Shown: positions 7,732 through 54,785 of the stretch, in pieces | Layout: each line of letters begins with the position of its first letter | Position numbering within the stretch: position 1 is the first letter of the stretch | Assembly (NCBI GenBank): GCA_900617105.1 | Contig: UYFQ01000268.1 | Coordinates: forward strand, 1-64,000 | Reading direction: 5' to 3' | Source: Hydrurus foetidus | Lineage: Eukaryota | DNA length: 64,000 nt | The notes under the pieces: model-generated | Told to the model about the DNA's origin: nothing | The model's database searches: none | The model's input: the letters and a program-made list of their open reading frames with translations, nothing else | Translations under genes and position numbers: made by a program

Positions 7732-7752
7732 TTTAAATATAGATTTTTCTCA

Positions 7753-11064: not shown

Positions 11065-11407
11065 TTAAGAATCTTGAGGGATCAACCAATGAGGTTTGAG
11101 TTCGAACGTGTTATCTTTTGAAGATTTTTTAGCCTAATTTTTTGCCCTTTTCTAAGGAAATTTTATGTTTTTTTAGTCAGTAAGAATCTGACATAATTAC
11201 GTTTTCTACCCTCGTACAACAGAATGAATCTGTTTTGTACAACCCCACCTTATCTTTCTACATCGAACCCCAAGTCTCGGCTAATTTTTCTTTTGTAATA
11301 CTTTTTATGTTCACTTTTATTTTTCATATTTTCGATTTTGCAAATATTTCGATATTTTCTTTTTCGATTAAATTATATATTAAGCTTTGCAAAGAAATGG
11401 GGGCTCC

Positions 11408-11449
11408 GATTTCGATTTCGATTTCGATTTCGATTTCGATTTCGATTTA
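11408..11449 (+). repeat. (GATTTC)n microsatellite, one per array unit (first shown), n about 2-16
   Basis: Read directly from the sequence. Longest near 31473-31567, shortest near 37024. It generates the spurious IS/RF/DF dipeptide ORFs. Confidence 0.95.
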
Positions 11450-11473
11450 GTTTAGATTTAGCTGAAATTTTCT

Positions 11474-11495
11474 TAGAAAGAAAGATTAGTGGGGG
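11474..11495 (+). other. Polypurine tract of LTR retrotransposon (one per unit, first shown)
   Basis: agaaagaaagattagtggggg, then a 3-nt spacer (taa), then the TG start of the LTR. Confidence 0.8.
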
Positions 11496-11706
11496 TAATG
11501 TGATAGTACCGGGTCCAGGGTCCCGATCCTACCGAGTACCGACTCTACCGGATCCTACCGGGTACTACTACTGTACACTATAGTTAGGCTGTTGTATCGT
11601 CGAGGCCATCTGCAGCGTCCACGTAGAAGTTAACTAGCTTCTAGCCTAGCCGACCAGTAACTAAGCCTACCTTTCTCGACTCTCCCTTTCTCCATTTCCG
11701 TGACTA

Positions 11707-11890
11707 TAATACAAAGAAACCGACATCGATGTCGTTCCATGTTAAATGGCTCAACTATGATAACTCACATAATACATGGGAGCCTTGGAAGAATCTCCGG
11801 CTCTGTGAAGCACTCCATGTATACTTGCGGAATAATAACATGTCACGTTTTATTCCCAAGAATCTTGAGGGATCAACCAATGAGGTTTGA
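11707..11890 (+). pseudogene. Chromodomain fragment (integrase C-terminus of a chromovirus), one per unit; internal ATG at 11729 gives a 53-aa ORF
   Basis: Translates as NTKKPTSMSFHVKWLNYDNSHNTWEPWKNLRLCEALHVYLRNNNMSRFIPKNLEGSTNEV*. This matches the F.VKW..Y....TWEP..NL chromodomain signature. The ORF is below the ORF-track cutoff. Confidence 0.9.
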
Positions 11891-35800: not shown

Positions 35801-37805
35801 TAAATGGCTCAACTATGATAACTCACATAATACATGGAAGCCTTGGAAGAATCTCCGGCTCTGTGAAGCACTCCATGTATACTTGCGGAATAATAACATG
35901 TCACGTTTTATTCCCAAGAATCTTGAGGGATCAACCAATGAGGTTTGAGTTCGAACGTGTTATCTTTTGAAGATTTTTTAGCCTAATTTTTTGCCCTTTT
36001 CTAAGGAAATTTTATGTTTTTTTAGTCAGTAAGAATCTGACATAATTACGTTTTCTACCCTCGTACAACAGAATGAATCTGTTTTGTACAACCCCACCTT
36101 ATCTTTCTACATCGAACCCCAAGTCTCGGCTAATTTTTCTTTTGTAATACTTTTTATGTTCACTTTTATTTTTCATATTTTCGATTTTGCAAATATTTCG
36201 ATATTTTCTTTTTCGATTAAATTATATATTAAGCTTTGCAAAGAAATGGGGGCTCCGATTTCGATTCTGATTTAGTTTAGATTTAGCTGAAATTTTCTTA
36301 GAAAGAAAGATTAGTGGGGGTAATGTGATAGTACCGGGTCCAGGGTCCCGATCCTACCAGGTACCGACTCTACCGGATCCTACCGGGTACTACTACTGTA
36401 CACTATAGTTAGGCTGTTGTATCGTCGAGGCCATCTGCAGCGTTCACGTAGAAGTTAACTAGCGTCAAGCCTAGCCGACCAGTAACTAAGCCTACCTTTC
36501 TCGACTCTCCCTTTCTCCATTTCCGTGACTATAATACAAAGAAACCGACATCGATGTCGTTCCATGTTAAATGGCTCAACTATGATAACTCACATAATAC
36601 ATGGAAGCCTTGGAAGAATCTCCGGCTCTGTGAAGCACTCCATGTATACTTGCGGAATAATAACATGTCACGTTTTATTCCCAAGAATCTTGAGGGATCA
36701 ACCAATGAGGTTTGAGTTCGAACGTGTTATCTTTTGAAGATTTTTTAGCCTAATTTTTTGCCCTTTTCTAAGGAAATTTTATGTTTTTTCAGTCAGTAAG
36801 AATCTGACATAATTACGTTTTCTACCCTCGTACAACAGAATGAATCTGTTTTGTACAACCCCACCTTATCTTTCTACATCGAACCCCAAGTCTCGGCTAA
36901 TTTTTCTTTTGTAATACTTTTTATGTTCACTTTTATTTTTCATATTTTCGATTTTGCAAATATTTCGATATTTTCTTTTTCGATTAAATTATATATTAAG
37001 CTTTGCAAAGAAATGGGGGCTCCGATTTCGATTTAGTTTAGATTTAGCTGAAATTTTCTTAGAAAGAAAGATTAGTGGGGGTAATGTGATAGTACCGGGT
37101 CCAGGGTCCCGATCCTACCAGGTACCGACTCTACCGGATCCTACCGGGTACTACTACTGTACACTATAGTTAGGCTGTTGTATCGTCGAGGCCATCTGCA
37201 GCGTTCACGTAGAAGTTAACTAGCTTCTAGCCTAGCCGACCAGTAACTAAGCCTACCTTTCTCGACTCTCCCTTTCTCCATTTCCGTGACTATAATACAA
37301 AGAAACCGACATCGATGTCGTTCCATGTTAAATGGCTCAACTATGATAACTCACATAATACATGGAGCTTTTTCCGGAACTCGGCTCTGTAGTTACCCAT
37401 GTATAATGGATACAATGTTATTCCCAAGAATCTTGAGATCAACCAATGAGGTTTGAGTTCGAACGTGTTATCTTTTGAAGATTTTAGCCTAATTTTGTTC
37501 CTTTCTAAGAATTTATAGTTTTTAAGAATTCGACATAATTATTGAAATCATTCTTGTACAACAGAATGAATCTGTTTTGTACAACCCCACCTTATCTTTC
37601 TACATCGAACCCCAAGTCTCTATTTTTCTTGATATTTTTATGTTCACTTTATTTTCATATTTTCGATTTTGCAAATATTTCGATATTTTCTTTTTCGATT
37701 AAATTATATATTAAGCTTTGCAAAGAAACGGGGGCTCCGATTTCGATTCTGATTTAGTTTAGATTTAGCTGAAATTTTCTTAGAAAGAAAGATTAGTGGG
37801 GGTAA

Positions 37806-38015
37806 TGTGATAGTACCGGGTCCAGGGTCCCGATCCTACCAGGTACCGACTCTACCGGATCCTACCGGGTACTACTACTGTACACTATAGTTAGGCTGTT
37901 GTATCGTCGAGGCCATCTGCAGCGTTCACGTAGAAGTTAACTAGCTTCTAGCCTAGCCGACCAGTAACTAAGCCTACCTTTCTCGACTCTCCCTTTCTCC
38001 ATTTCCGTGACTACA
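37806..38015 (+). mobile_element. Complete 210-bp LTR (last array unit)
   Basis: Begins TGT right after the PPT and ends ...gtgactACA. All internal units read gtgacta|taataca, i.e. they lack the terminal CA. Confidence 0.75.
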
Positions 38016-38444
38016 CCGAATACATTTCAGAGGCCTATATAGGATATGCGGATTTACAATTGGGGGATAAACCTAATGGTGGTTCCACCTCTATATAACA
38101 AATGTCATTTTATATGACGCTAGATTTGCAGGGATTTGACCGTGTTCTCGCAGTCCGAGAATGGTTTTAGGGGGTCTAATTTTGGGGGGATTTGACGATC
38201 CGGGGGTCTAATGTTGATGCGATTATCCGGTGGGTTTTATGGAGCTGGACGTTTGGATGATCCGGGGGGGGGGGTCTCATGGAGTTTGGGTGAAACACAC
38301 GACGCAACCCTCTGTACTGTTATCTACTCTTGTGATGAGACGAACTGAAACTAGCTGAACTTCAGTGCTGATGTATTCATGATGGGCTAGTCATTAACTT
38401 CAGATCGAACCATTTACAGGCTCATAGTATTGACTTGCTTTTTT

Positions 38445-41400
38445 ATGGAGCGTTGTGATATTTTGAGGGATGCCCGAGTTGTTCCGCAGAGAGGTGACAA
38501 CAGCTGCCTTTTTCATTCGCTAAGTTTTTGTCTCAGTTATGATGGGATAGTGCCAAGTATTCACGATGATATGTCCGGTTTTCGTTTGCGGGAGGAGATT
38601 TGCAGTTACATCCGCGATAACGAAGATGTGGTTATCAGTATTGCTCCAGAGGAGCAGCGGACATTATCTGAGGCTGTTGGAATGGAGGGTTTTACGTGTT
38701 CTAGTTACTGCGCCAAAATGTTGAATCTTATGGAGTGGGGATCTGTCATTGAGATTGCTGCGGCTGCGGAAATGTTTCTTATTGGCATTCGAATCTATGT
38801 GCCTGTTACGCGGAAGCGGTATTTTACGTTGTTGGGCTCATACAGGTGTATTGGGTTTGATTCGAATTCTAGTGAGATCTATTTATTGTACACTGGTTTC
38901 AACCATTACGACGCTTTAGTTGATTGGTCACCTGGGGGCATCAATGTGGGTCTGTGCAGCGCCGACAACTCTTCATCGTATCTTGGTCGCCCAATACATG
39001 AGTATAATACATCTGCATCATTTGCGGAACGGAGGCGGCTTTCACGTAAGCGTGTGTCAAGTGCTAATTTGGAATGTCGTGGCGACATGGCATTGTCGTC
39101 TAAATCTACTGAGTACATGTCTCGGCGGTTGCCTATCTATTCCGGACTGACTGATGAAGCTAAGAGGACAAACAGAAAGCTTCGAATTGAAAGGCGCGTT
39201 GCCACAAGGAGAAGTGTTTCAAATTCTGTTGGCCGGTCATCCTGTTCAATTGATGCATCGCTTTATGCCAAAAATTATGATATATTGACAAGGTTCATTG
39301 TCTGCGGGATTTGTGGCCTGGAAGGTTCTAGTGTTGGGGCGAAGCTTATTTGTGATATGCAGCATTTTATTGATGCGTCAGGGTTGACGGCAAAGTTCAA
39401 ACTTTTGACAACGGTTCACACATATATGTCAACGTATGACTGCATGTTCGTTGATGATCTTTTGCGGGTTTTCAAAGATGGAATTATTATCGGTTGTACT
39501 CATTTGTGTAGTAGTTGTTGTCACCAACTTCAAGGCAAGAAAAAGTCTGGAGTCATTTCTGACTTGGCACCAGTGTGTGTGGACGATGCCATTACTGTTA
39601 TCGAAGGTCACGATACTACCATGGCGCATCACGATATGATACAAGAGGGTGAAGAATGCCAGTCTGGTCCCTTATATAGTGAAGTTGTTGGTCTTTCTAG
39701 CTCTAAGGAAGGGTCTGCATCTCGAAGTTACAGCGTTCCCAAACTCACGTTATTTAATGGGTTATTTGCCGGAACTATACCTTCTGAGTTGGTTGGTTTA
39801 ACTTGTGTCGAAGAAAGTATGATAAATATCTATTCTTCCGTGACGAAAATGTTTTTGGCGGGTGGAAAGCACTACAAAGTCAAAGGCGGAACCAGCTACA
39901 CAATTATTAATGATTTGACTAGTGTAGCTAAGTATCTACCACGTATGCCGTCCATTGAAGATACAGCTGTTATGCGTCACAGAAGAACTGATGTTGGGAA
40001 GGAGTACAAATATCGACCATTTAGGGTATTTTCGGCATTGAATTGGTTGAAAGAGCACAATCATTTGTATAGTGATATCGAAATTATCTGGCCTATTAAT
40101 GTTAAGTATTGGCAGGAAACGACATCACCAGTTGATATTCCTTTCATTGAATTAACTGATGATGAGGATTGTGATATTGATGGTGGTAATGTTGCAGTCG
40201 ACGAAGTTTCTGATGAATACTCTACTAATACAGGTATATTTTGCCTTGTTGTGTTACTACGTGTTCATTGCTAATTTTCAAGACTGACATTCCCAACATT
40301 ATCATATTAGTATCAGCAGGAAAAAAGCACGAAATTTTGTTGGAGTCACCTGACTCCTTGGTTTCACATATTGAGGGTATATGCAGTGCTTTAATTGACC
40401 CATCACATTGTACTTATGAGAGGAACACGCTACATGAATTCGTATGTCAGTTCAAAAATCCTGAGTATTATCTATCGCGGTGTTTTGCTTGTCTATATCC
40501 GTACGGTCGTGGGTGTCCTAGCGACAAGTCGTGTGGTATGCTTAGCAACGCAAAATACGTAAAACACATGTTGTGTTTAGGTGGTGGGCCTTCAGCTAGG
40601 AGGTTTCAACAGTCAGCTGGATTCATCTTTAATATGTATACAATGGAGATGAGAAGAAAGTTAGGGGCGTTGCTTTCGTGGCTCAAAAAAAAAATCTTGA
40701 TAGTACAGCTCCACTTGAAGAAGTACCAAATATTAGTGATATTAACAATTTATTAAATTATTTGGAGGAGTCTTTAGTTTCCGCTCAAGAAACATTGAAG
40801 TCTAGTAATGTGTCTAGCGATACAGCTATGAATAAGTCATCGGACAAGTATGATGAAAGAGAGATGCAAAAATTGATTAAACGATTAATACCTTATTCTC
40901 AGTCGTTACAAGGAACTGCAACTCATATAGCTTATGAAAGGACTAAACTTATGGCAATGATTCCGTCTCCTATAATCAATAAGTTGGGTTTGTGGCGACT
41001 ATTTTTTACTGTTGCACCAGCAGATCTTTATGAAAGTCGCTTTTTCGAACTTGTACAGAGCCAAATAACTGATCATAGTATTGAATTTTGGAATACCAGA
41101 GTTAATAAGGTAAGTTAATTATATTTACAATTTCTATACCCATTATTTTGCATTAATCAGTGTAATTTATTTACTTATATTTAGGCGAAGTTGCTAGATT
41201 CTGATACAAGAATGAATCTGTTGCGAAGTCATCCAGCAACTGTCGCACGTCTATTTGATTACAAGCAGGATTGTATGTGGAAATATCTTGTGATGGGTGA
41301 GTCTAAGCCATTTGGAGAAGTTACTGATTTTTGGAGGCGAGTCGAGGTATGTTTTGAATTAACCATACATAATGTCACTTTCAGTTCTAATTCATTTACG

Positions 41401-44400
41401 TACAGTATCAGGCTCGCGGAACACCACATGTTCACAGTTTGATTTGCATTTCAAAGGCGGATGGTATTGATTCTGGTACAGTTGATAGTGACGACGTTGT
41501 TGAACAAAATAAAGTTAAAAGTTATGTTCAAGGTATTGTCAGCGCAATTTTGGTCAAGAAGATTAATTGTACGAATATAAGTGTTGATATGAATGGCAAA
41601 GATCAGCAGAATATTGGAGATACGAATATAATGAATAAAGTTGAGTTGGATGAATCTGATTTTCTTTGGAATCCATCTAGGGAATATTTTTCAGATGATA
41701 TTCACCCATGCCGACTGCCATTTGATGCCCATTTGAATTATGAAAGGAGTGTTGATGGTGTATTTGCCGACAACGATGTGCAGCGTCAATACCGTCGACT
41801 CCAAATAGCAACACAGTTTCACAGGTGCTGCTTCACGTGTTTTAAGTATTGTTATTCGCACAACCAAGTATGTAGATTCGGGTTTCCATGGGTTTCTGAT
41901 GGTTGTACATTTGAGCCTATCATAAGGCGAGATCGCGACAAGAAGAGCAGAATTCGGGTTTCTGTCTTACCACAACGAAATAATGCATATTTAAATGGTA
42001 CATTACACAGTCCATTAATATCGATTGCTCATGGTGGAAATCATGATATTCAGTACATTGGTAATAGTGTTGGTGCTGCAGAATACGTCGCGTCATACGC
42101 ATCGAAAGCTGAAGAACCAGATAAAAGTGCGATGGCTAATATTTACGCCAAGAAAATAAAATATATTGTTGATACAAGTTCTGTTGTTACAGATAGACAA
42201 CGATTGTATGCCGTCGGGAGTGCTATATTGGGGAGTAGTCCGGTTGGTGCTGTTCAGGCGTGCTATACATTATTGGGTCTTAAAATCGTTAAATCTTCAA
42301 GAGCTGTTATTAATCTTAATCCATTGCACCGTAAGTTTTGCTTATTGCACATTTAATTATTTGTATATATTTTATTTATATTACTTAGCGGTGTCTAATT
42401 GACAGTTTCAAATTATATTAGGTGATGAGATGAACAAAGGTCTTAAGACTAGGGCTGAAATTATTGGTCAACTTGAAGATTCAGATTCAGCAGTTGAATG
42501 TGGCCTTAACTCTGCGATGGGTAAGCGTATGGCATATCAATTGTTAGTCATACAGCAGAGAGAAAATTATGATGGTAAATGCAACATCACCATATATTCG
42601 TTGTATACATCATACAACGTTTCTGTAGCAAGCACAAAAGTGTACCCTGCTCCGTCATTACTACATGTTGATGACGGTGGTATTATTATATCCACATTAA
42701 AAAATCACAAGTTTATGATTCAAAACACAGTCTACACGAGATTAAGGAAAGATTGTGTTGTCAATCTGTGTCCATATGTACCTGTGAACGATAGTGACGA
42801 GCGATCGTGTTATTCAACATTACTCGTACATATACCATGGCCATGGGGTGGTGAAGAGGAAATTTTACGAGGCTATGAGTCTGCTGTAGAGTGTTTGTAC
42901 AACCTCAAGTTGAGTGACGACATTCCACCGTATGTAAATTATACACTTGAATTATTACACAATTCGAATGTTATTAGAGACAATGTTGGAGTGAATATCA
43001 ATGAGGTTGATGAGGAGTCTGATGAGTTCTTATACAATAATTGCAGCGATGAAAACAACTTTATTGTTGAAGAAAGCAATTTGTTACAATTTGGCGATAC
43101 CATCAATATGCCCTTAAATCCGTATAATAACAATATTGACTCTATGATTAATATCACTGCTGCAAATATGCGGTACTGTAAAAATTTTATACAAAATGTT
43201 CAAAATAAACATTTAGAAAGTTTAAGAATAGAAAATTCAATTCATTATATAATGGCGAATTATCATCTGGTTCAAATATTTATTGTAAAGTCAACAATTA
43301 TGAAGAAAGATTTAAAAAGTTAGAAGATAATGTTAGTAGGCTTACAAAGCAGCAACTGAAAGCGTACAATATTGCCGTGGAGTATATAAGTGGTCAGAAA
43401 AACAGTCAAATGTTAATGTTTGTCACTGGCGAAGGTGGCACTGGTAAATCATTCTTAATTAGCTTAATAATGGAATATACTCAAATATGTCATGGGAAAC
43501 AGAAAGGTTTATATGGTTCTGCTTTGTCTATAGCACCAACAGGAGCTGCAGCAAATGTAATCAGCGGTTATACTTGGCAATCAGTCTATGGAAAGGGTAG
43601 AATAAAAAAGAAGTCAAAAGTGTGTACTATGTCGAAAGAATGTGCACAAGCTGTCGGTAGTAAAATTGCTGGTGTCAAACTTATTGTTCTCGATGAAATC
43701 TCTATGATAAACTTGGAAACATTGAATGAAATTAGCGAACGGCAGATCGCAGCTATGGGAACACAAACTAGCGATCCGATATTGCGACAGAGTTTCAAGG
43801 AAAAACATTTTGGAGGTGTGCATATATTGTTCACTGGAGACTTTTATCAACTAAAACCAATTGAGCCAGAGGCTATTTATACAAATGATATTCAATACGC
43901 ACGCTCAATTAAAGGTCGCAAGATTTGGTTGGACTTGAATGAATATGTTGTATTGACAGAAAATACTAGATATATGCTCGATGCGACGCCATTAATGAAT
44001 GTTTTCTTATCCGGGGCAAGAAAGGGTATTGTCAATCAAGAATTATTACAAGCTATGAACTCCCGAGTATTTGTTAACGAAAAAGCTGCCAGACGAGAAG
44101 CAGGTCCAGACGCTGTATGGATCGCACACGAGAATAAAGTTGTACGGAGACTTAATAAGACAGACTTTGAAGAGAAAGTCTCAAATGGTGTTATCAATCA
44201 TAGGATTATTGCACGGCATATTCCTGTATCAAAAGAACATAAGATGCCTGACAAGGAAACTATTGATAAATTGTTATTAATTACAAAATACGGCAGTGCA
44301 GCTCCTTATTTAGATTTGGCAATTGGTACTAAGGTTAGCTGCACTATGAATTTGGGAACACAAATAGGTACACTCTTGTTTATTTTCGTCTATGTAATAT

Positions 44401-44965
44401 GTATTGTCTAGAATATAAATGTATTCCTTTATTAATATTTGTGATTGCCAATTATTATAGGTATATTTAATGGGGCAAAAGGGAAAGTTGTGGCCTTTGC
44501 ATTCTCCTACGATCCAGACGATATTGGAATTCATCAACAAAGATCCAATGTACAAAACGAACTCCCTGTCGTATTTGTCAAAATGGATCACGATGTAGGT
44601 TATTCAGTAATACCATCGCTACCTAATGTTGTACCATTTACCGAGCAATGTGACATCACCGAGAAATATTCTAAAAATATCATCGATGGCAGATTCCGCT
44701 TGTTGCTGCATTTGCAACTACAACCCACAAAATGCAAGGCTCAACTGTCAAAGGAAATTGTGTAACTATACCTTCTTTGAAGTGTCCATGGGCTCGTGGA
44801 TTGGACTATGTTGCTAATTCTAGGGCAACGGAATTGTCAAAACTGTTCCTCCTTAGACCTTTGAAATCGCAGCATTTCACAAGTCATGAAAAAGAGCGAA
44901 ACAAAATAGACGCAGAATATGCGCGCTTAAGCCGCTTGTTTTGCTCAGCTGGTGAAACTAATTAA
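38445..44965 (+). CDS. RepHel transposase: OTU protease, Cys-rich region, HUH Rep, PIF1 helicase; 6 exons, 3 frameshifts
   Basis: OTU: GDNSCLFHSLS, WGSVIEI, NHYDAL. Rep: FFTVAPAD, spliced RRVE/YQARGTPHVH, YVASYASKAE. Helicase: TGEGGTGKS, LDEISM, GDFYQL, HKMQGST, YVANSR. Introns 40234-~40310, 41110-41184, 41347-41405, 42331-42421, 44368-44460. Frameshifts near 40665, 43245 and 44673. No C-terminal endonuclease seen. Confidence 0.93.
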
Positions 44966-45111
44966 TTGTAGTACCATGAAACCACAATTGTAACGAGATG
45001 TACAAATAGTTTCCGATCCGTACAGGAAACTAAGTATTTGAAGTTTAATGAAATTACAAATTTAAGTAGAAATATGATTGCAAGATAATTTTTTCCTTTT
45101 TAAACAGCCAA

Positions 45112-45186
45112 GGGGCACCCGGAGACCATCTATAAATCCCTACGGACCCAGCAAGAACTGTATGAGACAAACATGAGGTTGCCCCC
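45112..45186 (-). other. Conserved 75-nt structured non-coding element (copy B)
   Basis: Reverse complement aligns with 7753-7827: 13/14 identity at the 5' end and 37/42 at the 3' end. Confidence 0.7.
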
Positions 45187-45207
45187 TACGAAAATAGCTT
45201 GATTAAA

Positions 45208-46452
45208 TTAACTCTTTATGACATAAAGATCCATAAGAAAACATTGATTCATCCATCGCATACGTGTTGCTAAATTTTGTATTGAAAAAACTTTTTCACC
45301 GGCAGTACACCCATTATCATATATAGTGCCATTCATATTGTCGTCAACATCGACACCAATCGCATGGTCATTTAGAATTTGCTTTCCCTTTATCCATGTA
45401 TCTAACTTATCGGAATCTGAGTGTTGCGCAGTTATAGATGTTAGCAAACGTTTGTGAGTATCATTATTTTTACGTGTTGCTCCGAAGAATACATATTTCC
45501 CTGGCCTACATAAATTTGATTCGATTGAATGCATGTCCCAATCGTTGTTGAACCCTAGCTGCTTGAATTTGTAGACAACTAACAATCCTGTCGCCTCAAA
45601 ATGCATCTTAGATACATGTCTGAAAAATTTGTGGGCATCGGTAGATGTTGTTCCCTAACGAAGTTTCTGCCCTGTTCACCAACTGCTGCCTTAAACATAT
45701 CCCTAACATCCATGGTTTGGTTCATCTGTAATATAATATTGAACTTGTTAAAATCAACTCTAGCTGTTAAGATCTCATATGGTCCGAACTCACCGTTACT
45801 AAGTTTTTCTGGTCTTCGTTCATAAGACTGAACATCGCGCTGAGCATGCATAGATTTTCAGATGCCTTCCACGTTGCAGGTCGTTGGGTGATTACTTCTT
45901 GACTTGGGCTCACTATTGGTTCACAAATTGGAGTAATTAAAGCCGGGATCATCGAATAGTTGATAAAGCATTGACAGACGGTAGGTTGTTGAAGTCAGTT
46001 ACGTTTGAAAGCAGCATGCATAAGTATAGAGTGTAACCTACCGCTTGTGGTTGGCTCTGATTTTGACGCTCTCGCCAATTTGGCGTTTGGTTTGGCAATT
46101 GTTGCTGATGGAGTTATGCCTGTTCTCCGGAGGTTGATGCATTTGTTAGTCGAGGATTCTAATTCAGCTATTGAAATCAAAAGGATCTTACCACTCGACT
46201 GTGGCTTGGGCTTTGTCACCAGTGCCATTGAAATCTCTGGTTTCGCAATCTTAACTGATGGTTAATTGCCAATAGTTCAGAAGTTCATTGGATAAGTTTT
46301 TGGCGACATTTGGCGACATTTGAATCTAGCAACCGGGTTAAGTTGAACTTACTTAGCTTTTGTGGCGTGTTAGTGAGTTTCCGGAGAGCTTTTGTTGGCG
46401 CTTTCAGTGGAGTTGACCCGTCGTGTTGTTTCAGCTTCTTGAATCGTGGCAT
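45208..46452 (-). CDS. Cargo gene A, copy B: basic N-terminus plus predicted papain/C39-like cysteine protease domain
   Basis: WKASENLCMLSAM, intron 45793-45726, DHAIGV, IYDNG. One frameshift in a G run near 45653. N-terminal exon structure uncertain. Confidence 0.65.
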
Positions 46453-46492
46453 GTCAAAATTGCGCCGGCGGCCAAATTTCCTGACGAAGAAA

Positions 46493-46760
46493 GATAAATC
46501 CGTAAGCTCAACAATTCGAGCCTTGCAGTGGCGGCTTGAAGATGGCGTGGCTGATTTGTGGACTACGTGGCATCCATCGATATATTGATTGCTGCGATAT
46601 CTGCGACTTGAGATGTGCAGCAATCGATAAATCCGTAAGCTCAACGATTCGAGCTTGCAGTGGCGGCTTGAAGATGGCGTGGCTGATTTGTGGTCTACGT
46701 GGCATCCATCGATATATTGATTGCTGCGAGATCTGCGACTTGAGATGTTGCAGCAATCGA
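46493..46760. repeat. Near-perfect tandem duplication, 133-bp period, 2 copies
   Basis: gataaatccgtaagctcaac...gcagcaatcga begins at 46493 and again at 46626. Confidence 0.95.
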
Positions 46761-47336
46761 CGGTCGGATCTGACGAGTCCACGTTTTGAAATTTTTTCAA
46801 TTAGTACTAAATTATCTTAAATAGCATCAAATCAGCTTATTATCATCTTTCTTGACTGCTGCAGCTGCAAAAATTTAATAACTTCAATACAGCTGGTTCA
46901 TTTTGCGAAAAAAATCTCTTATCGATCATGTTTCGATTAACCTAGTGTAGGTGTTCATCAGATTTGAAATAACAGCTGTTTTTCTTACAGTAGCAAACAA
47001 TTTTGAATACGATGCCATATATGTGGCTAAACAGCTTCGAGATTAATGCGTTGTCCGCACCATATGATGTTGTGAAAGTTGGAAGGAGATTATATTCGAA
47101 TGCGATATGCCTTATTTAAATCGGTTTGAGGATTACGTTTTTTCAAAATACAGGGCACAAATATATTCATCATATTCTAACAGGCGTCACACTGCGAAGT
47201 ATAATCATGATTTAATGGAAATTCCCGAATTGAATACGCAATTAATTGGACTGTTCTACAAATCGCTTGTTAATTCAAGGTTAAAGGGTCAAGCTACAGC
47301 TAATTGGTATAGCTACTTGGTGATGTCGTGTTAGCA

Positions 47337-48280
47337 TTACGGAATTCTCCTTGGTCTGAATGGTTTCACCGGGCTCTTTGCGGAGAAGTCAAATTCGGCT
47401 TCTGTGAACGCTACAGGCGGAGGAGTATACCAATGTTGTGGTTGTTTTAGATATTCACCCCTATATGTGTAGTACTGGTACGACGGCCACTCGATTACTT
47501 GGGGCAACGCAAGGTGACAAAGCGATAACTGGGCCCGACGTGGATTCGAGATAAGAGTGGTTAATGAGTAGATCTCCGAGACTTCGTGGTAAAGTGCTTG
47601 GGAGGGATTGGCCGGCTTGAGGACAAACTACGAATTTTAAGTTGAAAGTTAAACCTTTGCTTCAATGTTGCGAATTCGGTTTATTATGATTTACCTGGAG
47701 AAATTTGGAGGCATCAGTGTGGATGTAGAGTGGCCCTGTCGTTGTCAACTCCGAGGAATCAGGAAGTAGAAAGGTTGTTGGGACCTTTTTCTTGGATTCG
47801 TTGGCCCTACAGACTCATGAACTGTAGATTAGCATGTCAACATGTCAACATGAATTATTGTCAGCATGGAACTAAAACGTACCGAAACCACTTTTCAACA
47901 AGGAATGCTTGATCGCCCCAAACAACAATTGTTCGGAGTACACCCGTTGGATCGACAATGTAAATGTTCAGCACTGCCTCAGATCTTTCAGTTCCGAGAA
48001 TTTTCTTGATGTCAACAGGACTGATGCTTTTTACAATGAAAGTTCTCTTTAATTTGTCGTCATATACTCGATCGTCAACTGAGTCTTCATATACTAGTTC
48101 GTCAAGTGGAGTGATTATATCAACTTCATCTTCCTCTGCTTTCACGAAGTCTTCATCGTCCAAAGCGTAGACGATGTTGTCGGGTCGTTGACTCTTCTCA
48201 GCTGCTTCTCGATCAGATGCTTCTCTGGAGCTCATCGATTTCTCCGCTTTTGTTGGTTTGGATAAAGGAGATTTCCCCAT
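47337..48280 (-). CDS. RPA70-like OB-fold protein (cargo gene B, copy B), 3 exons; last exon has a probable frameshift
   Basis: MGKSP start, VLNIYIVDPTGVLRTIVVWGDQA, TGPLYIHTDASKFLQ and FVLKPA are all shared with 4854-5570. Confidence 0.65.
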
Positions 48281-48599
48281 TGTTTGCACTGCGATCAACT
48301 ATGGATTCAATTGTGGTCAAGCTATATTATAGAAGCTATAGTTTTGCTGGCGCCATGATATGGATAAGTCAATCGTGATTTCAGTATACGACGTCATTTG
48401 TATGTCGAATATACCGTCATTTCTTCGGTATTTCAGTAACTGATCCTCTAACTGAAAAAAGCTGACGATTATCTACTGCAAGTTACGATGACAATGATAA
48501 ATATCAACCAATCGTATGTGTCATTCGTCTAAATAGACGAATGGTGTCAATTAAATTCACGTATTCCAATATACGTACCTAAGACCGTGCGACATCCGC

Positions 48600-50132
48600 C
48601 CAGTGAATATGTAGGGGGAGTCTGCAATATAAGTGTAACTGACACCAGATTGTATATATACGGTTTGCATTTTATACTGTTAACTGTTGAGATAAACAGT
48701 AGATTCTCGACACAAGATAGTCGCTGTCAGCATCGAATACTCTATGTCTAAAATACAAAGTACCGAGCAGGTTCAAAGTTAAAGGCACAAGATCTGCTGC
48801 AGTTCGGGTAACGTTGAACTAGTATGCTAGATAGCTTTGAGCTTGACGCTGATTTCGACGTGGACATTTTCGACATTGTAAACTCCATGTACACGAAGGA
48901 GTATGAGGCATACGTGGAAAAAGTTGATCAGTTATTATCGACATCATCAACTTTAAATAAAGTTGGTGGTGCATCAAATTATGCGAGACTTCTGTCTTGG
49001 AAGGACACTTACAACATCAGCCGAGAAAAATCTGCTACGGAAGCTGCCAAAATACGGGAAGCTGTTCGTCAGAGAACGTTTGACTTGGCGCATTCCGTAG
49101 ATGACTGCCGTATGTTTTGGGACTTTCTGAAAACTTCACATCATTTCCGAAACTCTCCATGGTACTACAGAGAATATATGGTCGAAAAGCTACTTGGAAG
49201 ACATACTGTCGATGTTGAGAGCATATTGTGAGTAAACTTGACTATGCATTGTGTCGAATAGTCATTAACAAACAACAACTGTTGACAGTTACGACAGGAT
49301 ACTGCACGAAAATAACGACCCAGATATCTGTCAAGCTGATTCATCAGTTCAGATACCTTGGACTGACGGTTATAGATCGATAAACGACGTTCACAAAAAT
49401 GACATGGTAAGTAACATTAATTAATCGTTGACTTCTTGCGCTTATTGGCTTATCGTTAACTTTTAACTATAGAAGGTTATTGGTATGTACTTTCGGGCAG
49501 AAAGCGGCGACAAGCGTCCGTTGTGTAAAAAGCTATACAACTGGTATAGACGTAGAGTAACAGATTACAAAAGTTACCTTTCAGTGCTGTTTCCAGAGAA
49601 AAACGCGTCATAGCAAAGGTGGTCACTTCGGAAGTTGCCAGTACCAAACGAGTAAGAATAACCACAGACGTTCTTGGAAAACCAGTCACGCCCAATAATG
49701 GTGCAAAAGGTGCTACTGTTGTGCAGAGATTGTTGAGAAACTTCAAAGAATCATACAACGTAAGTCTACAATATCATAATATGATAAGCTATAAAATAAA
49801 AGTAAAATGATTTTAATTAATGTTGTAGGACAGGTCAGGTGTTAGCATGGGGAGTTTATCAAATGCCGCAACAGACAGTCAATTAGAGGAACTAGTTACA
49901 TTGCCAGTAACAAACAAGGTTGAAAAATGAATACCACTCTAACAATACATTGCAAAACCTTTTAATCAATTATCATTCCTTATTATAGGTGAATAGACGT
50001 ATCATACGTATCGATATCAATAGCGAAAGAATCCAGACACTGCTGCATCAATGGTCGGATGAGATCAGAGAAGAGTTTTTGATCTTTCTGGATCATGCAG
50101 AAAGTATTTGGACAACTTATGAAAGTTGTTGA
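48600..50132 (+). CDS. Multi-exon hypothetical protein (cargo gene C, copy B; start uncertain)
   Basis: Exon 48824-49227 and downstream exons (YFRAESGDKRPLCKKLYNWY; VNRRIIRIDINS...IFLDHAE) are conserved with copy A. No family recognised. Confidence 0.75.
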
Positions 50133-50400
50133 CGTAACTTTCAACGTCTTCATATTTGAATTTTAATAATAAACTACACAGTATAGCTAGCGTATAATAA
50201 CCTTATTACATTGTCTGTCTCACTGTACAGCGTACCGCCAGTAAACTCGTATTTCGTTAATTAAGAAAAAATTGTATACACTGCGAACAGATTTTTGGTA
50301 ATTTTTCGAGTACTGAACACTGAGCAACGTGCAATCAGATCTAACCTCATAAGACATCGGCTAACAATTGAGAGAAAGCGATTGCACAAAAACACTGACA

Positions 50401-53400
50401 ATGGTGGAAACTCGCACAAAACGATTGCTTGAACAGCAGGACGAAGAGCCATGTGATAATGCGTCAGTTGACACATTAGCTGGGTCGGAAGACGATGATT
50501 TACCACGTGACACAACCGGGCATGTGGTGCTTTATGAAACTCGTCAACCGCCAAAACAATTCATGGATCTCGTCGGTGGAGCAATTAAGTTCGAACAGCT
50601 TATGCTATGCGTTGAATCGTATGGCAAATGCCAACTTTACACGCAGATGTTCCGTGACCTCTACACATCTGAAGCTCAGAAAGAGGCTCTGATCAGCAAG
50701 CTTCAGAGAAACGTGTACTTTTTCCAGAGTTTTATTGAAGCAAAGCCGACATACAAAACATGTCTTGGAGAAAGAATAATGTTCAATCAATACGCTGTTG
50801 AGAAATTCCGCAGAAACAATGAGAAATTCGACCTCATCAAATTGCTGTAAGTCGATCAGCAGCTATATAAAAATCGTTTCAAATGAGCTAATCCATGGAA
50901 CTTTTGATTACAGACGCGCCATCAACATAGTCGACGCACTTCCTGACACGAAGGTTTCAATTATACAGTTGAACAATGAGACTCTGCGAGTGCGAAAGCT
51001 TAATGACGATCTACTGGTAAGCAATACATATCAAAATTGACAAGTCAATGTCGAATCCAATATTCTCTGGCTGATGGAAACTTAATGCATCCTTAACAAG
51101 CAGACACTGGTCGGGTACAGTTTGCAAAATATTCACAAAACGAAATTAGGAAGAAAATTATCAGACTTCTCTCGAAGAGCACAACAAGATTACAAGGAAT
51201 TCTTGTTCTGCCTTGCTGACAAAGACATTCCATTAGATTGGAATAAAACAACAGCTTACAACAAGAAAGTTTCAGCTGCAAGGAAAAAAGCACGACTGGA
51301 AAAAGACGCGGTAAGTCAATATCAATATAACAACGTAACACCGTCAACAAACAATCGGATACTAATTTGATTAATGAAAATGGCAGTTGGCAAAAGAAAC
51401 TGAGCCCATCGACGCGGAGACAACACAGATAAATGTCTCGCAGGTACGGCATATTAAGTTAAATTGCATTACTCTTATTGACTTCTCTAATTCTAATATC
51501 CCACTCCCATGACAGACGCGTACGAAAACAGTTAAAAGACAGCAATTACAGAGATATACCTCAGAAGACAACATAGATGTACGTAACAATACAAATAATT
51601 ATCGTAATATTGAGACTCCTTATTTGCTGTATGTACATTTTTTAACGCAGCAAAATGATATGAGTACTCCTATAGACGAGGACGATGGCCAACAGACCCA
51701 AGTGTCTACCACCTGTGACATACAAGAGATTACGGTAAGCTTGTTAAATAAAACAACAATATAAATAAAAAAAGATAACAGTTCAAAATGAAATAATCAA
51801 TACATCGTTAAATAGGACGAGATACGGCCAGTAAATGAACCTGCAGCAGTGATGCAAACAGCTAGTCAATCTGCAGCAGAGGTGTCCCAAATAGTCTGTG
51901 ATACTGAGGCCGAGGTACTCCACATCCTGAGTGAAGTAATAGCACAGGTAAACATAACATAATAACTAATGCTAGACAACTATGTGACATGGTTTTCAGC
52001 GTTTTAATTAATTAACACATATTTCAACCACTTAAACTTAGGTTCATGAAAATCGTGAATGGATGGATCATATAACAATAAAAATGCGAAGTTTAACTAC
52101 TGCAAAACAGGAAGAATTTAAATTTATAGTAAATTGCTTTTTTGAAAACAACAAAAATGATAATGAACAAAATGAATCATTCAATATACCAAATGCAACA
52201 TTCAACGCTCTAATAGGTAATGAATCGCAGAGCGATGTAGTAGTTTCCGGAGAAGAACTTAGTACGGTATCAAATGAAACCATAGTCACAAATATTAGTA
52301 CAGCACCTTTATTTACTGAAAACATAACAATTAATAACACACAGCAATATTCACCGACCAACGAAAATAATAACTTAAATATAACAACAAATAATATGCA
52401 AGTACTCGGACAAGCAAATAATACAGCGTTAGCGACGATAACAACATTAGAAGAAGTAACAAAAAGTAATAAGCAAAGAGTAAATAGACCTAGGCAAACA
52501 AAAACAAAATTTACCCCATACAATATAACAATTACGTTAAGAAACAGGAATACATGCACAATTCCGGTAACAACATTTTTCAGTTCCGCAAGCCAGCCAA
52601 GGATTGGTCGTGGGCAAAACTTAACAAGAATTGCTAAAGTAAGAACAGACGAAGAGCTTGTGAGTGACGAAATCGATTTATATATAAATCATTTAAATCA
52701 CAAACACAAATTGGCGAAAATAACAGACGTTATAATATTAAATGTAGATTTTTATATAATGGCACTAAGATACGTAGTACAAGAAAGGGATGAATTCAAT
52801 GCACCACAATTACAACAGCCAACGGGTACAGAAGAATATGGTGAATTAATACCAAAATATCCGCTAATAAAACCTTACGACGAAGAAAATGAAATTAGAT
52901 GCACAACCGTAATTGGACATTTCCCGAAAAAAGAAGATTTTAAAAATTTTCAAAAGGTACGATAATAAATCAGAATGTTCCTCGATAAATAATCAATTGA
53001 CAATTCAAGCTAATTTCTGATTTCTTACGCGATAACGTTATCACAGATTATGTTCCCAATCCAATCAGACGGACACTGGATCCTCGTTGTAATCTCATTA
53101 AAATACAAACAAATAATGATGTGCGATAGCTTGGATAATAACAATTGCCAGTCAGATGTGTGGAGGATACAGTTTCATTTCTACGGTACTACTATCCGGA
53201 AATTCCGGAATCAGACTGGAGATACGATACCTTAAACGCAGCAGACAAATTCCAAAATTTGGAACTTAATACTGACTGTGGCTTTCACATATTAAACTTT
53301 ATGCATGCGGCACTTAAAAATGCAAGAATACCACTATTACATGAAACCTTTAATGAATTCAAGGCACGTACTGATAGAATATTGCATGACTTGACAAAAC

Positions 53401-53483
53401 CTGCACATGTTTTAATAACATCTTCTTCAGTCGGAACAACACAAGAACAAAATGAAGAAACACCACAAGAACATGTAGAATAG
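50401..53483 (+). CDS. Multi-exon Ulp1/SENP (peptidase C48)-like SUMO/ubiquitin-like protease (cargo gene D)
   Basis: C-terminal IILNVDFY...IMFPIQSDGHWILVVI...CDSL...FQ....NTDCGFHIL follows the C48 His-Asp-Gln-Cys order. A chain of GT-AG exons links it to the MVETRTKR start. Intron 52957-53046; frameshift near 53160. Confidence 0.8.
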
Positions 53484-54240
53484 AAGAAACACCACAAGTA
53501 CCATCGCGTGAAACTGTCAATAATTTGGATGAAATATAACATAATGTATCAATAATTCATTAATTAAATTGTCTTAAACTAGAAATGCAATAATAGAAAA
53601 CTCTCAAGTAATAATCAAAAAAATAATTTAATATAATTTTATACTCAATTTTTTTGCACTATTGCACTACACATCCTGTGTTCACAAGCATTCAACTCAG
53701 AAATGTTGGACATTGAATTACTGTTATCCGGTATGCACATTCTGTATTCCGTATCCAAATCCAGGTTGGGGCTTTATCCCCCACAAGGCACGTAGATACG
53801 AGCCCCCCCACAATATAGGCCTACATAGGACCTTAATTAAGTGTTTTCAAGGAAACCTATAGGGCTTACAGTCGAAACATACAAAATAAAAAATCCTCAA
53901 AACACGGGTTTTCCGAAAATCCTCGGCCCTTTTGGACCCAAGACCTCGTGTTTTTTTGGATTCCTCATTTTGAATTCCTCGATCCGAGGGCTTCAAAACG
54001 AGGAATTTGAAAACCTCAAAACTCAAAATTACGAAAAAGTGGCTGGTTCGGTTTCACCGATTTGAGGAATTCTGGAAACCCGTGTTTTGAGGATTCGAGG
54101 ATTCCAGTGCGGGGCATAAACGTAACCGGGGCATAAACGTAACCGAATTTAACGTAAACATCACCCGCATCAGCCATCGATTGCCGTTGCTTCTCATTAT
54201 AATTCTCAACCCGATCAACATCTCGTGAATATCTCGCCGA

Positions 54241-54738: not shown

Positions 54739-54785
54739 ATGAATCATCTTACATGCTTATTATCAATTAAATTCATATGTTTATT

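Follow-up and report, generated by a model that had tools for sequence, protein, structure and literature searches.

A Helitron2-type transposon copy from Hydrurus foetidus with four accessory genes under apparent purifying selection

Introduction

Helitrons are usually described as consisting of a single transposase gene together with captured gene fragments. The locus presented here lies in a 64,000-nt stretch of Hydrurus foetidus DNA (the whole of which is referred to as the window), and it raises the question of whether the intron-bearing genes found behind a Helitron transposase are passengers or parts of the element. A first-pass annotation of the window had proposed the latter, describing two diverged copies of an almost virus-like element with five genes, of which the transposase gene is called RepHel and the others A to D. 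We compared the two copies with each other, with related copies in public runs and with the systems described in the literature.

Results

Identity and limits of the element

Positions 38061-53813 of the window (forward strand, 15.8 kb) hold one copy of a Helitron2/HLE2 rolling-circle transposon, hereafter copy 2. The features of the region are listed in Table 1. The first 11 nt of the element (38061..38071, forward strand) are an asymmetric terminal inverted repeat, TGGGGGATAAA, and its counterpart is found near the other end, which places the repeats, as read in this one copy, at 0 nt (5') and 30 nt (3') from the proposed ends. They are the sole matches in the window at one mismatch or fewer, a count that is not significant alone (at least two matches were obtained in 26 of 100 shuffles). 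The candidate flanks are a T at 38060 and a T at 53814, the ends again being read from a single copy. The fold of the 91-nt stretch containing the 3' hairpin is no better than that of shuffled sequences (z -0.27), and a putative weak hairpin at the 5' end (38062-38067 with 38084-38089) has a z of -1.96, with 9 of 200 shuffles folding equally well.

Helitron2 is described as having asymmetric terminal inverted repeats of 8-15 nt and a RepHel protein without an endonuclease (Bao and Jurka 2013, PMC3627910), and the definitions used for Helitron2/HLE2 give repeats of 8-15 or 12-16 nt, the 5' one at 0-2 nt and the 3' one at 20-30 nt from the end, as well as a hairpin at the 5' end that includes the repeat, one at the 3' end beyond the repeat, and insertion between two T's with no duplication of the target site. 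DUF6570 is a marker of HLE2 according to HELIANO (PMC11417382). The element was assigned to HLE2 since its inverted repeats, its hairpin and its DUF6570 domain fit these published definitions (PMC3627910, PMC11417382), and the Helitron2 type proposed in the first-pass annotation is thereby borne out by the 11-nt repeat, the 3' hairpin, the candidate T/T flanks, DUF6570 and the lack of a recognised endonuclease.

The limits of the element are set to within 47 nt on the left and 54 nt on the right, because the satellite stops at 38013 and another repeat starts at 53868-53871. Loose ends at 38013 in runs X5 and X1 run on into the satellite unit. Just outside the ends there is a second inverted match of 10 nt (38042-38051 and 53811-53820), from which another element boundary is possible. 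The flanks are chromosomal, consisting of the satellite, other repeats and a host RRM gene. Within the element, the number of copies of the 132-bp duplication between A and B differs among related copies (joints 47075 to 46533, 46534 or 46665).

Table 1. Features of the window, with positions counted from its first letter
Feature	Position	Strand	Details
Copy 1	1..11062	-	Inverted, about 25% diverged, older or decayed; 5'-truncated, and cut inside D by the window start
Satellite array	11067..38013	+	About 34 tandem units of about 800 bp, between the two copies; stops precisely at 38013, 47 nt short of the element
RepHel gene, six predicted exons	38445..44965	+	38445-40233, 40311-41109, 41185-41346, 41406-42330, 42422-44400, 44461-44965
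Gene A, two predicted exons, 225 aa	45214..45952	-	45952-45794, 45725-45217 plus stop; intron site common to both copies
132-bp tandem duplication	46493..46760		In the unconserved A-B spacer; 2.0 copies, 96% matches
Gene B, three predicted exons, 266 aa	47337..48280	-	48280-47883, 47806-47695, 47627-47337; open in copy 2; introns common to both copies
Gene C, three predicted exons, about 217-220 aa	48824..49613	+	48824-49227, 49289 or 49298-49406, 49473-49613; introns 1-2 common to both copies
Sixth conserved coding block	49846..50132	+	49846-49925 and 49989-50132; not listed in the first-pass annotation
Gene D, exons 1-5 of nine predicted	50401..53483 (whole gene)	+	50401-50846, 50914-51016, 51104-51310, 51387-51443, 51516-51578
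Gene D, exons 6-9 of nine predicted	50401..53483 (whole gene)	+	51651-51734, 51816-51947, 52042-52956, 53047-53483
3' asymmetric terminal inverted repeat	53773..53783	-	Exact inverted match to 38061-38071; 30 nt from the proposed 3' end
3' hairpin (GGCaCGT-loop-ACGaGCC)	53787..53804	+	Imperfect 6-7 bp stem; follows the right repeat and precedes the 3' end (53813)

Comparison of the two copies

Copy 1 lacks the first 3.8 kb or so of the element; its RepHel begins at the equivalent of position 41875, where it abuts the satellite array, and it leaves the window within gene D, with the C48 domain and the 3' end lying outside. A blastn comparison of the copies gave 74.9% identity over 4062 columns (41875-45879 against 11062-7060), as well as three short matches in the cargo, while protein-level matches run collinearly from 41874 to 51316 in copy 2 and from 11063 to 1653 in copy 1. 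The genes follow each other in the same order and on the same relative strands in the two copies (in the orientation of copy 2, RepHel forward, A and B reverse, C and D forward), as the first-pass annotation had stated. Its further claim of common intron positions also held: in a global alignment, eight of the nine introns mapped have GT...AG at the same aligned columns, and the ninth (RepHel intron 5) has the acceptor alone in common. Exons are 58-78% identical between the copies and introns and spacers 41-60%, in agreement with the divergence reported for the non-coding parts. All splice models are predictions, because contigs of two runs guessed to be RNA pass straight through the introns (records 12 and 15).

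The mismatches fall preferentially on third codon positions in all five genes (chi-square p from 0.002 to 4e-50), with counts at positions 1/2/3 of 138/83/364 for RepHel, 46/28/94 for A, 59/48/87 for B, 47/39/86 for C and 83/62/123 for D. The dN/dS comparison called for in the first-pass annotation gave NG86 dN values of 0.116 for RepHel, 0.229 for A, 0.403 for B, 0.310 for C and 0.413 for D, calculated on a protein-guided alignment that tilts slightly toward low dN, and pS values of 0.61-0.78, which are saturated, so that omega is only bounded. These patterns argue for purifying selection on all four cargo genes.

Both window copies are broken. In copy 1, C and D are disabled: exon 1 of D has two in-frame stops, and C has a frameshift in exon 2 and a private deletion of 17 nt in exon 3. 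One stop is also found in each of two blocks of RepHel. Copy 2 has five frame-breaking indels of its own.

The transposase

The RepHel protein of copy 2 (about 2053 codons) reads as OTU - DUF6570 - Rep (HUH, two Tyr) - PIF1 helicase. The Pfam matches are to OTU (PF02338, 32.1 bits, cut-off 23.3), DUF6570 (PF20209, E 6.3e-16, 59.5 bits, cut-off 24.3) and PIF1 (88.6 bits, cut-off 25.9), while Helitron_like_N scores 28.3 bits on a fragment, just below its cut-off of 28.9. The OTU Cys motif is read at 38496-38519, the HUH motif at 41424-41441, the two-Tyr motif at 42084-42107 and Walker A at 43428-43451. The frame is open for 2053 codons solely with an X at three breaks (40663, about 43206-43322, and 44672), where related copies have 1, 7 and 1 additional letters, respectively, and the donor of intron 5 is uncertain. 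No Pfam family matched the last ORF pieces behind the helicase, and the gene stops at 44965, immediately after it. An assignment as a Helentron in the strict sense was rejected for this lack of an AP endonuclease at the C-terminus of RepHel.

The accessory genes

Gene A was, together with C, one of the two genes that the first-pass annotation could not assign. It is now predicted to encode a papain-fold cysteine peptidase of an unnamed family. Its candidate catalytic Cys is in exon 1 (SENLCMLSAMF) and the candidate His and Asp are in exon 2, an order that fits papain-fold peptidases, in which a Cys opening a helix is followed by His and by Asp or Asn on neighbouring strands. The Cys is kept in 12 of the 12 sequences covering the column; among uninterrupted homologues, which bridge the junction of exons 1 and 2, Cys and His are each found in 12/12 and Asp in 11/12. 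The family comprises 37 clusters at 45-99% identity, and 94 representative clusters at E<=1e-3, all of them in metagenome assemblies, none named and all labelled "hypothetical".

The AF2 model of exon 2 (pLDDT 85.2; the Cys-bearing exon 1 is outside it) gives fold matches that are weak but nearly all papain-like, and which weakly suggest the assignment. Among the best 50 VIA rows, papain-like cysteine peptidases and deubiquitinases form the majority; the top row is YopQ, which is not a peptidase. The best Z is 5.9, under the noise level of 7-8 stated for the tool, and many members of clan CA were matched with Z 3.2-5.7, none reaching 8. Within Z 4.6-5.7 and over 110-125 residues, also below the noise guide, are the Helitron and herpesvirus tegument-like deubiquitinases (8add, 2j7q), Josephin (6pgv), UfSP2 (3oqc), a C39 peptidase domain (5xe8) and staphopain (8oig). 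Foldseek returned no match for the exon-2 model at E<=1e-3, and no Pfam or PDB family was matched by gene A at the sequence level. A viral tegument-like deubiquitinase (VTD) was considered and rejected: the catalytic motif of these enzymes is an invariable Asp-x-His (PMC9741609), whereas in the gene A family the residue two before the invariant His varies, and the conserved Asp comes 16 residues after it.

Gene B probably encodes an RPA-like OB-fold single-strand DNA-binding protein, as suggested by weak matches to three RPA70 DNA-binding-domain chains in a PDB sequence search (E 0.49-1.8). Its nearest named clusters in the Atlas are OB-fold ssDNA binders (scores 0.81-0.86, taken as leads only). 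The search with the family profile gave no RPA70 match and the gene gave no Pfam match. There are 13 homologue clusters at 73-97% identity, and conservation between the copies is poor in exon 3.

Gene C, for which the earlier lack of assignment still stands, is a conserved orphan with 15 homologue clusters at 53-94% identity. A homologue of A and one of C are each found on a single ENA contig of 8191 nt. The AF2 model of its exon 1 has a pLDDT of 40 and therefore gives no fold, and weak matches to T4 beta-glucosyltransferase were treated as chance. All five genes of the first-pass annotation were found, but the sixth conserved coding block had been missed. It may represent further exons at the 3' side of C, or else a small ORF of its own, which would have 71 aa counted from its ATG. 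Its tblastn match between the copies (49989-50108 against 3249-3130) has 50% identity over 40 aa (E 1.9e-9), and its mismatches at the three codon positions are 12/9/21 (p 0.06).

Gene D (about 814 aa) ends, as read from its sequence, in a C-terminal Ulp1/C48 protease domain of the SUMO type. It is open for 702 codons, a stretch interrupted by eight GT-AG introns (67-94 nt); a base is missing after 53145, beyond which 111 codons are open in the next frame. Peptidase_C48 (PF02902) is matched on 53041-53220 with E 2.5e-5 (24.7 bits, cut-off 20.7) over profile positions 86-119, and motifs with His (GHW), Asp (CDSL), Gln and Cys (DCG) are readable in this order.

Related copies in public runs

The element is present in public runs of 8 studies. 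Both old lineages extend across the cargo in the runs of 3-4 studies. Run X5 has 3508 contigs on copy 2 and 623 on 3.9 kb of copy 1. The lineage of copy 1 was followed over 1600-5500 in 4 runs of 4 studies, where 30, 28, 27 and 30 of 30 bins have depth. The element is abundant, reaching very high depth in one small run, and near-identical copies exist.

The five frame-breaking indels of copy 2 appear to be lacking in most related copies. At four of the breaks related copies are listed with inserted letters, which account for all of the depth in X1 and X19 and, at three sites, for about a third to half of it in X5, and which are absent from all X20 depth at two of the sites; the fifth break was deduced from 7 extra letters in two contigs (records 3 and 19). 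In gene A, a base missing near 45653 is present in nearly all related depth (X5 10865.6/10925.1, X1 25.7/25.7, X19 3.89/3.89, X20 0/2.66), and in gene D a C is inserted after 53145 in X1 (43.6/43.6), X19 (9.13/9.13) and part of X5 (4020.5/11379.4), but in none of X20 (0/5.87). Putative deletion derivatives were also found, with joints from 48733 to 53331 (X5 and X1) and from 40667 to 44899 (X5). One contig joins 45193 to 53762, which corresponds to a form with RepHel and the end but without cargo; it comes from one run, and its shorter side is 30 letters.

Discussion

Comparison with known elements

The element resembles Helitron2 (Helitron-1_CRe and relatives) in its 11-nt repeat, located at the very end on the 5' side and 30 nt in, upstream of the hairpin, on the 3' side, in having T as its first base and in a RepHel without endonuclease (PMC3627910). 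In the cited description Helitron2 encodes a single RepHel ORF (PMC4067079), whereas here there are four or five further genes as well as OTU and DUF6570 in RepHel, and the 5' hairpin is weakly predicted. With Helentrons and HLE2 it has in common DUF6570, an OTU located upstream of the Rep domain, Peptidase_C48, a probable RPA-like gene, candidate T/T flanks and, behind the right repeat, a 3' stem-loop (PMC4067079, PMC11417382). It differs from their descriptions in that some of the proteases have genes of their own instead of being fused domains and in that the RPA-like gene is downstream of RepHel, while HELIANO reports RPA to be enriched upstream in HLE2 (PMC11417382).

Another parallel is proto-Helentron-Pi of Phytophthora infestans (PMC4067079), of about 14 kb, with RepHel, a SET gene and two hypothetical ORFs. 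It is also large, without an endonuclease and with several accessory ORFs of partly unknown function; it differs in its set of genes, which includes SET, and, as first described, in Helitron1-like ends and in insertion at A/T, and its description reports no introns. OTU, RPA and Peptidase_C48 are among the domains that Helitron-like elements stably carry (PMC11417382). Since these domains and multi-ORF elements had already been described (PMC11417382, PMC4067079), the kind of element is less new than the first-pass annotation had thought. Four intron-bearing accessory genes are an unusual, but not unprecedented, load for a Helitron2-type element.

Origin and role of the accessory genes

We consider it likely that 38061-53813 is a broken Helitron2-type (HLE2) copy whose four accessory genes were kept under purifying selection in two old lineages, where they likely serve transposition. 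RepHel would nick at the 5' end, unwind in the 5' to 3' direction, halt at the 3' repeat and hairpin and reinsert the strand between two T's, while the predicted RPA-like OB fold of protein B would coat the single-stranded intermediate. Three thiol proteases (the OTU that is part of RepHel, protein A with its predicted papain fold, and the Ulp1-type domain of D) could strip ubiquitin-like modifiers off host or element proteins, which would keep the proteins needed for transposition from being degraded or weaken silencing that depends on SUMO/ubiquitin.

That A to D are instead host genes beside a Helitron, co-copied as passengers by segmental duplication or by a one-off read-through capture, seems highly improbable to us. 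Helitrons do capture host DNA by read-through (PMC6431247), and only two copies, both broken, are readable in full; full-length gene capture is called exceptionally rare in the same review. The right repeat and hairpin are downstream of D, which places the genes inside the termini, and all four show frame-specific constraint in spite of saturated synonymous distances. Both lineages extend over the cargo in several studies, their contigs in X5 numbering in the hundreds to thousands, and the clusters representing gene A are unnamed and confined to metagenome assemblies. The claim that the cargo is selected rather than passively captured is thus upheld by its position inside the termini, by the constraint on A to D and by the presence of the lineages in runs of several studies. 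A nested origin is just as improbable, with the accessory genes forming a second mobile element or cassette inside an ancestral Helitron that persists by its own means or through a benefit to the host, not by aiding RepHel. Such an origin would suit A and C, which have no known link to Helitron transposition, and the deletion forms, from which parts of the cargo are missing. Against it, neither a second transposase or integrase nor a pair of repeats delimits the block, its order and orientation are the same in both lineages, and an OB-fold protein, a C48 domain and a thiol protease are kinds that recur in the Helitron-like elements of the cited reports (PMC11417382, PMC9741609).

An integrated or episomal virus-like replicon, such as an enlarged rolling-circle Rep virus with the accessory genes as viral early functions, is very unlikely. 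The many genes, the proteases of kinds also carried by viruses, the very high depth in one small run, the occurrence in runs of 8 studies and the uninterrupted homologues of A, the longest contigs of which cluster at 6.9-7.7 kb in four clusters, would all be in keeping with a virus. However, the ends are of the Helitron2 type, every gene has predicted spliceosomal introns, the flanks are chromosomal and an inverted dead copy lies nearby. The description as almost virus-like was not supported, as none of the ORFs was recognisable as a capsid or packaging gene and four scans of viral contigs, run with A and C, gave no relative. A bolder version, which we regard as unlikely, is that a Helitron2 lineage became a self-contained multi-gene replicon with its own ssDNA-binding protein, three modifier proteases (one founding an undescribed papain-fold family) and an orphan, and that it disarms the ubiquitin/SUMO control of the host; the intronless environmental contigs of the A family, topping out near 7 kb, could then be small free replicons related to the ancestor of the cargo.

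Returning to the Helitron2-type element with retained accessory genes, the four accessory genes, complete and intron-bearing, have accompanied the transposase until synonymous sites were saturated, and because they are still constrained after this time A to D can be seen as working parts of the element. Three of its five proteins are known or predicted thiol proteases of ubiquitin-like modifiers (OTU, Ulp1 and protein A). Helitron-encoded deubiquitinases of another class have already been characterised (PMC9741609), from which gene A differs in having His and then Asp instead of Asp-x-His, and the proposal that different enzyme classes provide Helitrons with a deubiquitinase benefit fits this element. 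Our results strengthen the idea, put forward earlier (PMC9741609), that rolling-circle transposons need deubiquitinase-type activity, and extend it to SUMO-type proteases and to an unnamed family, that of gene A, which is a candidate new deubiquitinase-like class. Given its abundance and its near-identical copies, the element may offer a tractable way to study the role of accessory genes in a Helitron.

Structure and ends of the element

Copy 2, the forward-strand element, and copy 1, its inverted relative, lie on either side of a satellite array (Table). The exact 11-mer TGGGGGATAAA is found exactly twice within the window, as the inverted repeats of copy 2, although this count alone is not significant, as it is reached by 26 of 100 shuffles with one mismatch allowed. 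The proposed 3' end (53813) is located 30 nt from the right repeat, and a T is present both before the element (38060) and after it (53814). The first 80 nt fold weakly (z −1.96), with the left repeat partly in a stem. The flanks bound the element independently, since the satellite ends at 38013 and another repeat starts at 53868-53871, a boundary which is present in two runs. Helitron2 elements are described as having a 5' T and 8-15 bp repeats, of which the 5' one is located 0-2 bp and the 3' one 20-30 bp from its end, the latter upstream of a hairpin (PMC3627910), and DUF6570 is given as a marker of HLE2 (PMC11417382). The ends of copy 2 show the Helitron2-defining pattern (PMC3627910) and the HLE2 pattern (PMC11417382), as described there. 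A 10-nt inverted match just outside the ends (AGGCCTATAT / ATATAGGCCT, at 38042-38051 and 53811-53820) may represent a palindromic target site or else belong to a wider terminal structure, and it is possible that the boundary is slightly wider than 38061-53813. The 5' untranslated part contains repeated G-run motifs (38150-38300), whose copy number differs among related copies in the public sequencing run X5 and which may be Rep-binding repeats.

Features of the element, its genes and its surroundings in the window
Feature	Position	Strand	Remarks
Copy 1	11062 down to 1	-	same element inverted, left of satellite array
Satellite array	~11067-38013		~800-bp unit, about 34 tandem units, between copy 1 and copy 2
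Copy 2	38061-53813	+	right of satellite array
Left inverted repeat	38061-38071	+	11-mer TGGGGGATAAA, 0 mismatches
Right inverted repeat	53773-53783	-	11-mer TGGGGGATAAA, 0 mismatches
Imperfect hairpin	53787-53804		behind right repeat
RepHel (transposase gene), predicted exons	38445-40233, 40311-41109, 41185-41346, 41406-42330, 42422-44400, 44461-44965		introns 59-91 nt
OTU (Pfam)	38391-40274		32.1 bits, cut-off 23.3
DUF6570 (Pfam)	38391-40274		59.5 bits, cut-off 24.3
Helitron_like_N (Pfam)	40633-41118		fragment, 28.3 bits, cut-off 28.9
PIF1 (Pfam)	43209-44411		88.6 bits, cut-off 25.9
RepHel OTU Cys motif	38496-38519
RepHel HUH motif	41424-41441
RepHel two-Tyr motif	42084-42107
RepHel Walker A	43428-43451
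Gene A, predicted 2 exons	45952-45794, 45725-45217	-	225 codons, one break near 45653
Gene B, predicted 3 exons	48280-47883, 47806-47695, 47627-47337	-	266 codons, open
Gene C, predicted 3 exons	48824-49227, 49289 or 49298-49406, 49473-49613	+	217-220 codons
Extra conserved coding stretch	49846-49925, 49989-50132		either 3' end of C or separate small gene
Gene D, predicted 9 exons	ends 53483	+	eight GT-AG introns of 67-94 nt

The six-exon model of RepHel is open over 2053 codons only with an X at the breaks at 40663, about 43206-43322 and 44672. No further Pfam domain was found behind the helicase, which indicates that RepHel is without an endonuclease. Contigs in runs X5 and X1 jump back 792 nt within this gene (from 40958 to 40167), so that some copies have a tandem duplication here; the length of the repeat is about that of the satellite unit, and its sequence is not similar to it.

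A blastn comparison of the two copies gave 74.9% identity over 4062 columns (41875-45879 against 11062-7060) and three further short matches in the cargo, and the translated ORFs of copy 2 gave collinear protein matches between 41874-51316 and 11063-1653. The extents of these matches indicate that the initial ~3.8 kb of the element are missing from copy 1, and the start of the window cuts this copy off inside its last gene. The satellite units are mostly 99-100% alike, and the array begins at the truncated 5' end of copy 1 and leaves a gap of 47 nt to copy 2; in X5, depth is highest in the bin that contains the final part of the array. The array may have been a target of the Helitron copies or may have cut them by its expansion. 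A separate unit at 54101-56699 is probably another DNA transposon; it is bounded by inverted repeats of 50 nt with 92% complementarity and holds a 623-aa ORF without a Pfam match on the minus strand and a 169-aa ORF on the plus strand. Host-looking gene pieces (RRM_1, E 1.4e-5, and Q/N-rich stretches) are found at 57101-58925.

Constraint on the accessory genes

The predicted gene D is open for 702 codons until a base is missing after 53145, and the next frame gives 111 more. In copy 2, gene C extends to 49613. A reading with 17 nt removed at 49558-49574 was rejected, as a variant of the copy-1 lineage has a 17-nt insert at that spot, and no single-chain model from the ATG of gene C to 50132 was obtained under the splice rules applied.

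The first-pass annotation had described introns at the same positions in both copies, conserved protein blocks beside diverged introns and spacers, and a cargo kept by selection, all of which agree with the comparison of the copies. Eight of the nine introns mapped by global alignment have GT...AG at identical aligned columns; for RepHel intron 5 the acceptor alone is common to both copies, and the third donor of gene D is also shared. Identity is 58-78% in exons, whereas it is 41-60% in introns and spacers. Over the aligned blocks, dN (Nei-Gojobori) is 0.116 for RepHel, 0.229 for A, 0.403 for B, 0.310 for C and 0.413 for D, whereas the synonymous difference (0.61-0.78) is saturated, so that omega is only bounded, at roughly 0.1-0.3 or less. 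Mismatches at codon positions 1/2/3 (RepHel 138/83/364, A 46/28/94, B 59/48/87, C 47/39/86, D 83/62/123) are biased in all five genes (p from 4e-50 to 0.002), in codon alignments that were protein-guided and thus slightly biased toward finding constraint. Purifying selection has thus acted on genes A-D during most of the period after the two lineages separated. In runs X19 and X20, guessed to be RNA, the contigs run through the introns and no intron-shaped joints were found, a result that speaks neither for nor against the predicted splicing.

Gene A as a predicted papain-type peptidase

Exon 2 of gene A has 37 homologue clusters at 45-99% identity, and a profile built from 31 of them found 94 representative clusters at E<=1e-3 (50 at E<=1e-10). 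The members looked up all come from metagenome assemblies and are all named just 'hypothetical protein', with the exception of a 1211-aa protein named sortase, which has nine short matched stretches. None of the 31 members matches a peptidase family in Pfam, and the best match of the sequence profile in the PDB has an E of 0.37. The exon-2 model (pLDDT 85.2, pTM 0.77) gave nothing at E<=1e-3 in Foldseek. A wide structural search gave a best Z of 5.9, with five matches of at least 5 and none of at least 8, values which may be noise; most of the best 50 rows are papain-fold cysteine peptidases or deubiquitinases, including a Helitron tegument-like deubiquitinase (DUB), M48, Josephin-2 and UfSP2, as well as C39 domains, staphopain and streptopain.

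Twelve longer uninterrupted homologues, which bridge the exon 1/2 junction without a break, were aligned together with the exon-1 sequences of the two copies. Each of the 12 sequences that span the column of the exon-1 motif Cys has this residue (two start behind it), and the family His is present in 12/12 homologues and the Asp in 11/12. Together with the structural rows, this conservation leads us to predict that protein A is a Cys-His-Asp papain-type peptidase, so that the gene, which had been regarded as unassignable, receives a putative function. Cys140 of exon 2 was rejected as the nucleophile since it is not conserved across the wider family. An assignment to the tegument-like DUBs, which appear among the structural matches and are defined by Asp-x-His (PMC9741609), was also rejected because this motif is absent from gene A. 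Against the element's own OTU, only the Cys motif was aligned by hhalign (probability 0.75%), which gives no evidence of a common origin. Atlas neighbours named Gln-synt_C (0.87) were rejected, as they are under the lead threshold and find no support elsewhere. The longest contigs of four clusters of uninterrupted homologues (P0117, P0133, P0132/P0219 and P0200) measure 6.9-7.7 kb and could be a small replicon or short elements.

Genes B, C and D

Gene D has a Ulp1-type protease at its C-terminus, with a Peptidase_C48 match at 53041-53220 (E 2.5e-5; 24.7 bits, cut-off 20.7) and with motifs for His, Asp, Gln and Cys present in this order. Gene B has no Pfam match and is likely to encode an RPA-like OB fold: its exon 1 alone retrieves three RPA70 DNA-binding-domain chains (E 0.49-1.8), and the named clusters closest to it in the atlas consist of OB-fold single-strand binders (0.81-0.86). 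The family profile of gene B retrieved no RPA chain from the PDB. Exon 1 of gene C has 15 homologue clusters, and its AF2 model (pLDDT 40) is all-helical and unusable. Weak matches of gene C to T4 beta-glucosyltransferase (Pfam E 0.018, PDB profile E 0.017) and to DUF6537 (E 5e-4, below the cut-off) were rejected as probably due to chance, since the model is all-helical and the matches cover about 70 residues.

Disabled copies and relatives in public runs

Both copies are disabled. In copy 1, exon 1 of gene D contains two in-frame stops, exon 2 of gene C a frameshift and exon 3 of gene C a 17-nt deletion, which is absent from a related variant in run X8, and two RepHel blocks are interrupted by one stop each. 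Copy 2 has five frame-breaking indels. The cargo-bearing region (44000-53900) was found in 20 listed runs from 8 studies, comprising metagenomes from freshwater, sediment and glaciers as well as a coded 'organism A'. Across 37900-54100, 30, 29, 30 and 30 of 30 bins are covered at >=90% likeness in four runs from three studies, and X5 alone has 3508 matching contigs (1897 at >=99%). The copy-1 lineage covers 30, 28, 27 and 30 of 30 bins over 1600-5500 (four runs, four studies). Contig depth is unfit for ranking genes, and copy number is not derivable from it.

Related copies insert letters at four of the copy-2 breaks, behind 40663, 44672, 45652 and 53145. The insert is present in all depth at the four sites in X1 and X19. 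In X5 it accounts for nearly all depth at 45652 and about 1/3 to 1/2 at the other three, and X20 has it in all depth at 40663, shows the state of the window at 45652 and 53145 and has no depth at 44672. These mixed states indicate that the alleles in the window are real variants and not only assembly slips. The fifth break is consistent with 7 extra letters carried by two contigs (42469-43269 and 43127-43654). Forms with internal deletions join 48733 to 53331 (X5 and X1) and 40667 to 44899 (X5); a single weak joint from 45193 to 53762 was seen in X19, with a shorter side of 30 letters. A homologue of gene A (P0006) and one of gene C (P0043) each come from one ENA contig with a length of exactly 8191 nt, which suggests a third linked copy. 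Scans of metagenome contigs found no relatives of gene C or of the A family.

Relation to known Helitron-like elements

Helitron-like elements are reported to stably carry OTU, RPA and endonuclease domains as well as 17 others, which include Peptidase_C48, DUF6570 and Herpes_teg_N (PMC11417382). The tegument-like deubiquitinases encoded by Helentrons are biochemically active, and it has been proposed that different enzyme classes supply a deubiquitination that benefits Helitrons (PMC9741609). A proto-Helentron of ~14 kb carries RepHel, a SET gene and two hypothetical ORFs (PMC4067079), and full-length gene capture by Helitrons is called exceptionally rare in a review (PMC6431247). A family with the same gene set was not found in the literature, with Repbase outside the scope and the HELIANO supplement covered for two terms.

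The first-pass annotation had also called the element almost virus-like. Viral contigs scanned with the A pair, the A family, the C family and the uninterrupted A homologues gave no relative, and that description is not supported. The identification as a Helitron2-type element with a conserved cargo is borne out by the pattern of repeats and hairpin, by DUF6570 and by the constraint on A-D between the two copies. The family is thus genuinely of Helitron2 type, and its accessory module is conserved. While this kind of element is already known, what is new is a stand-alone, unnamed family of predicted papain-fold proteases, together with the orphan gene C and the long-term retention of four complete genes with predicted splicing.
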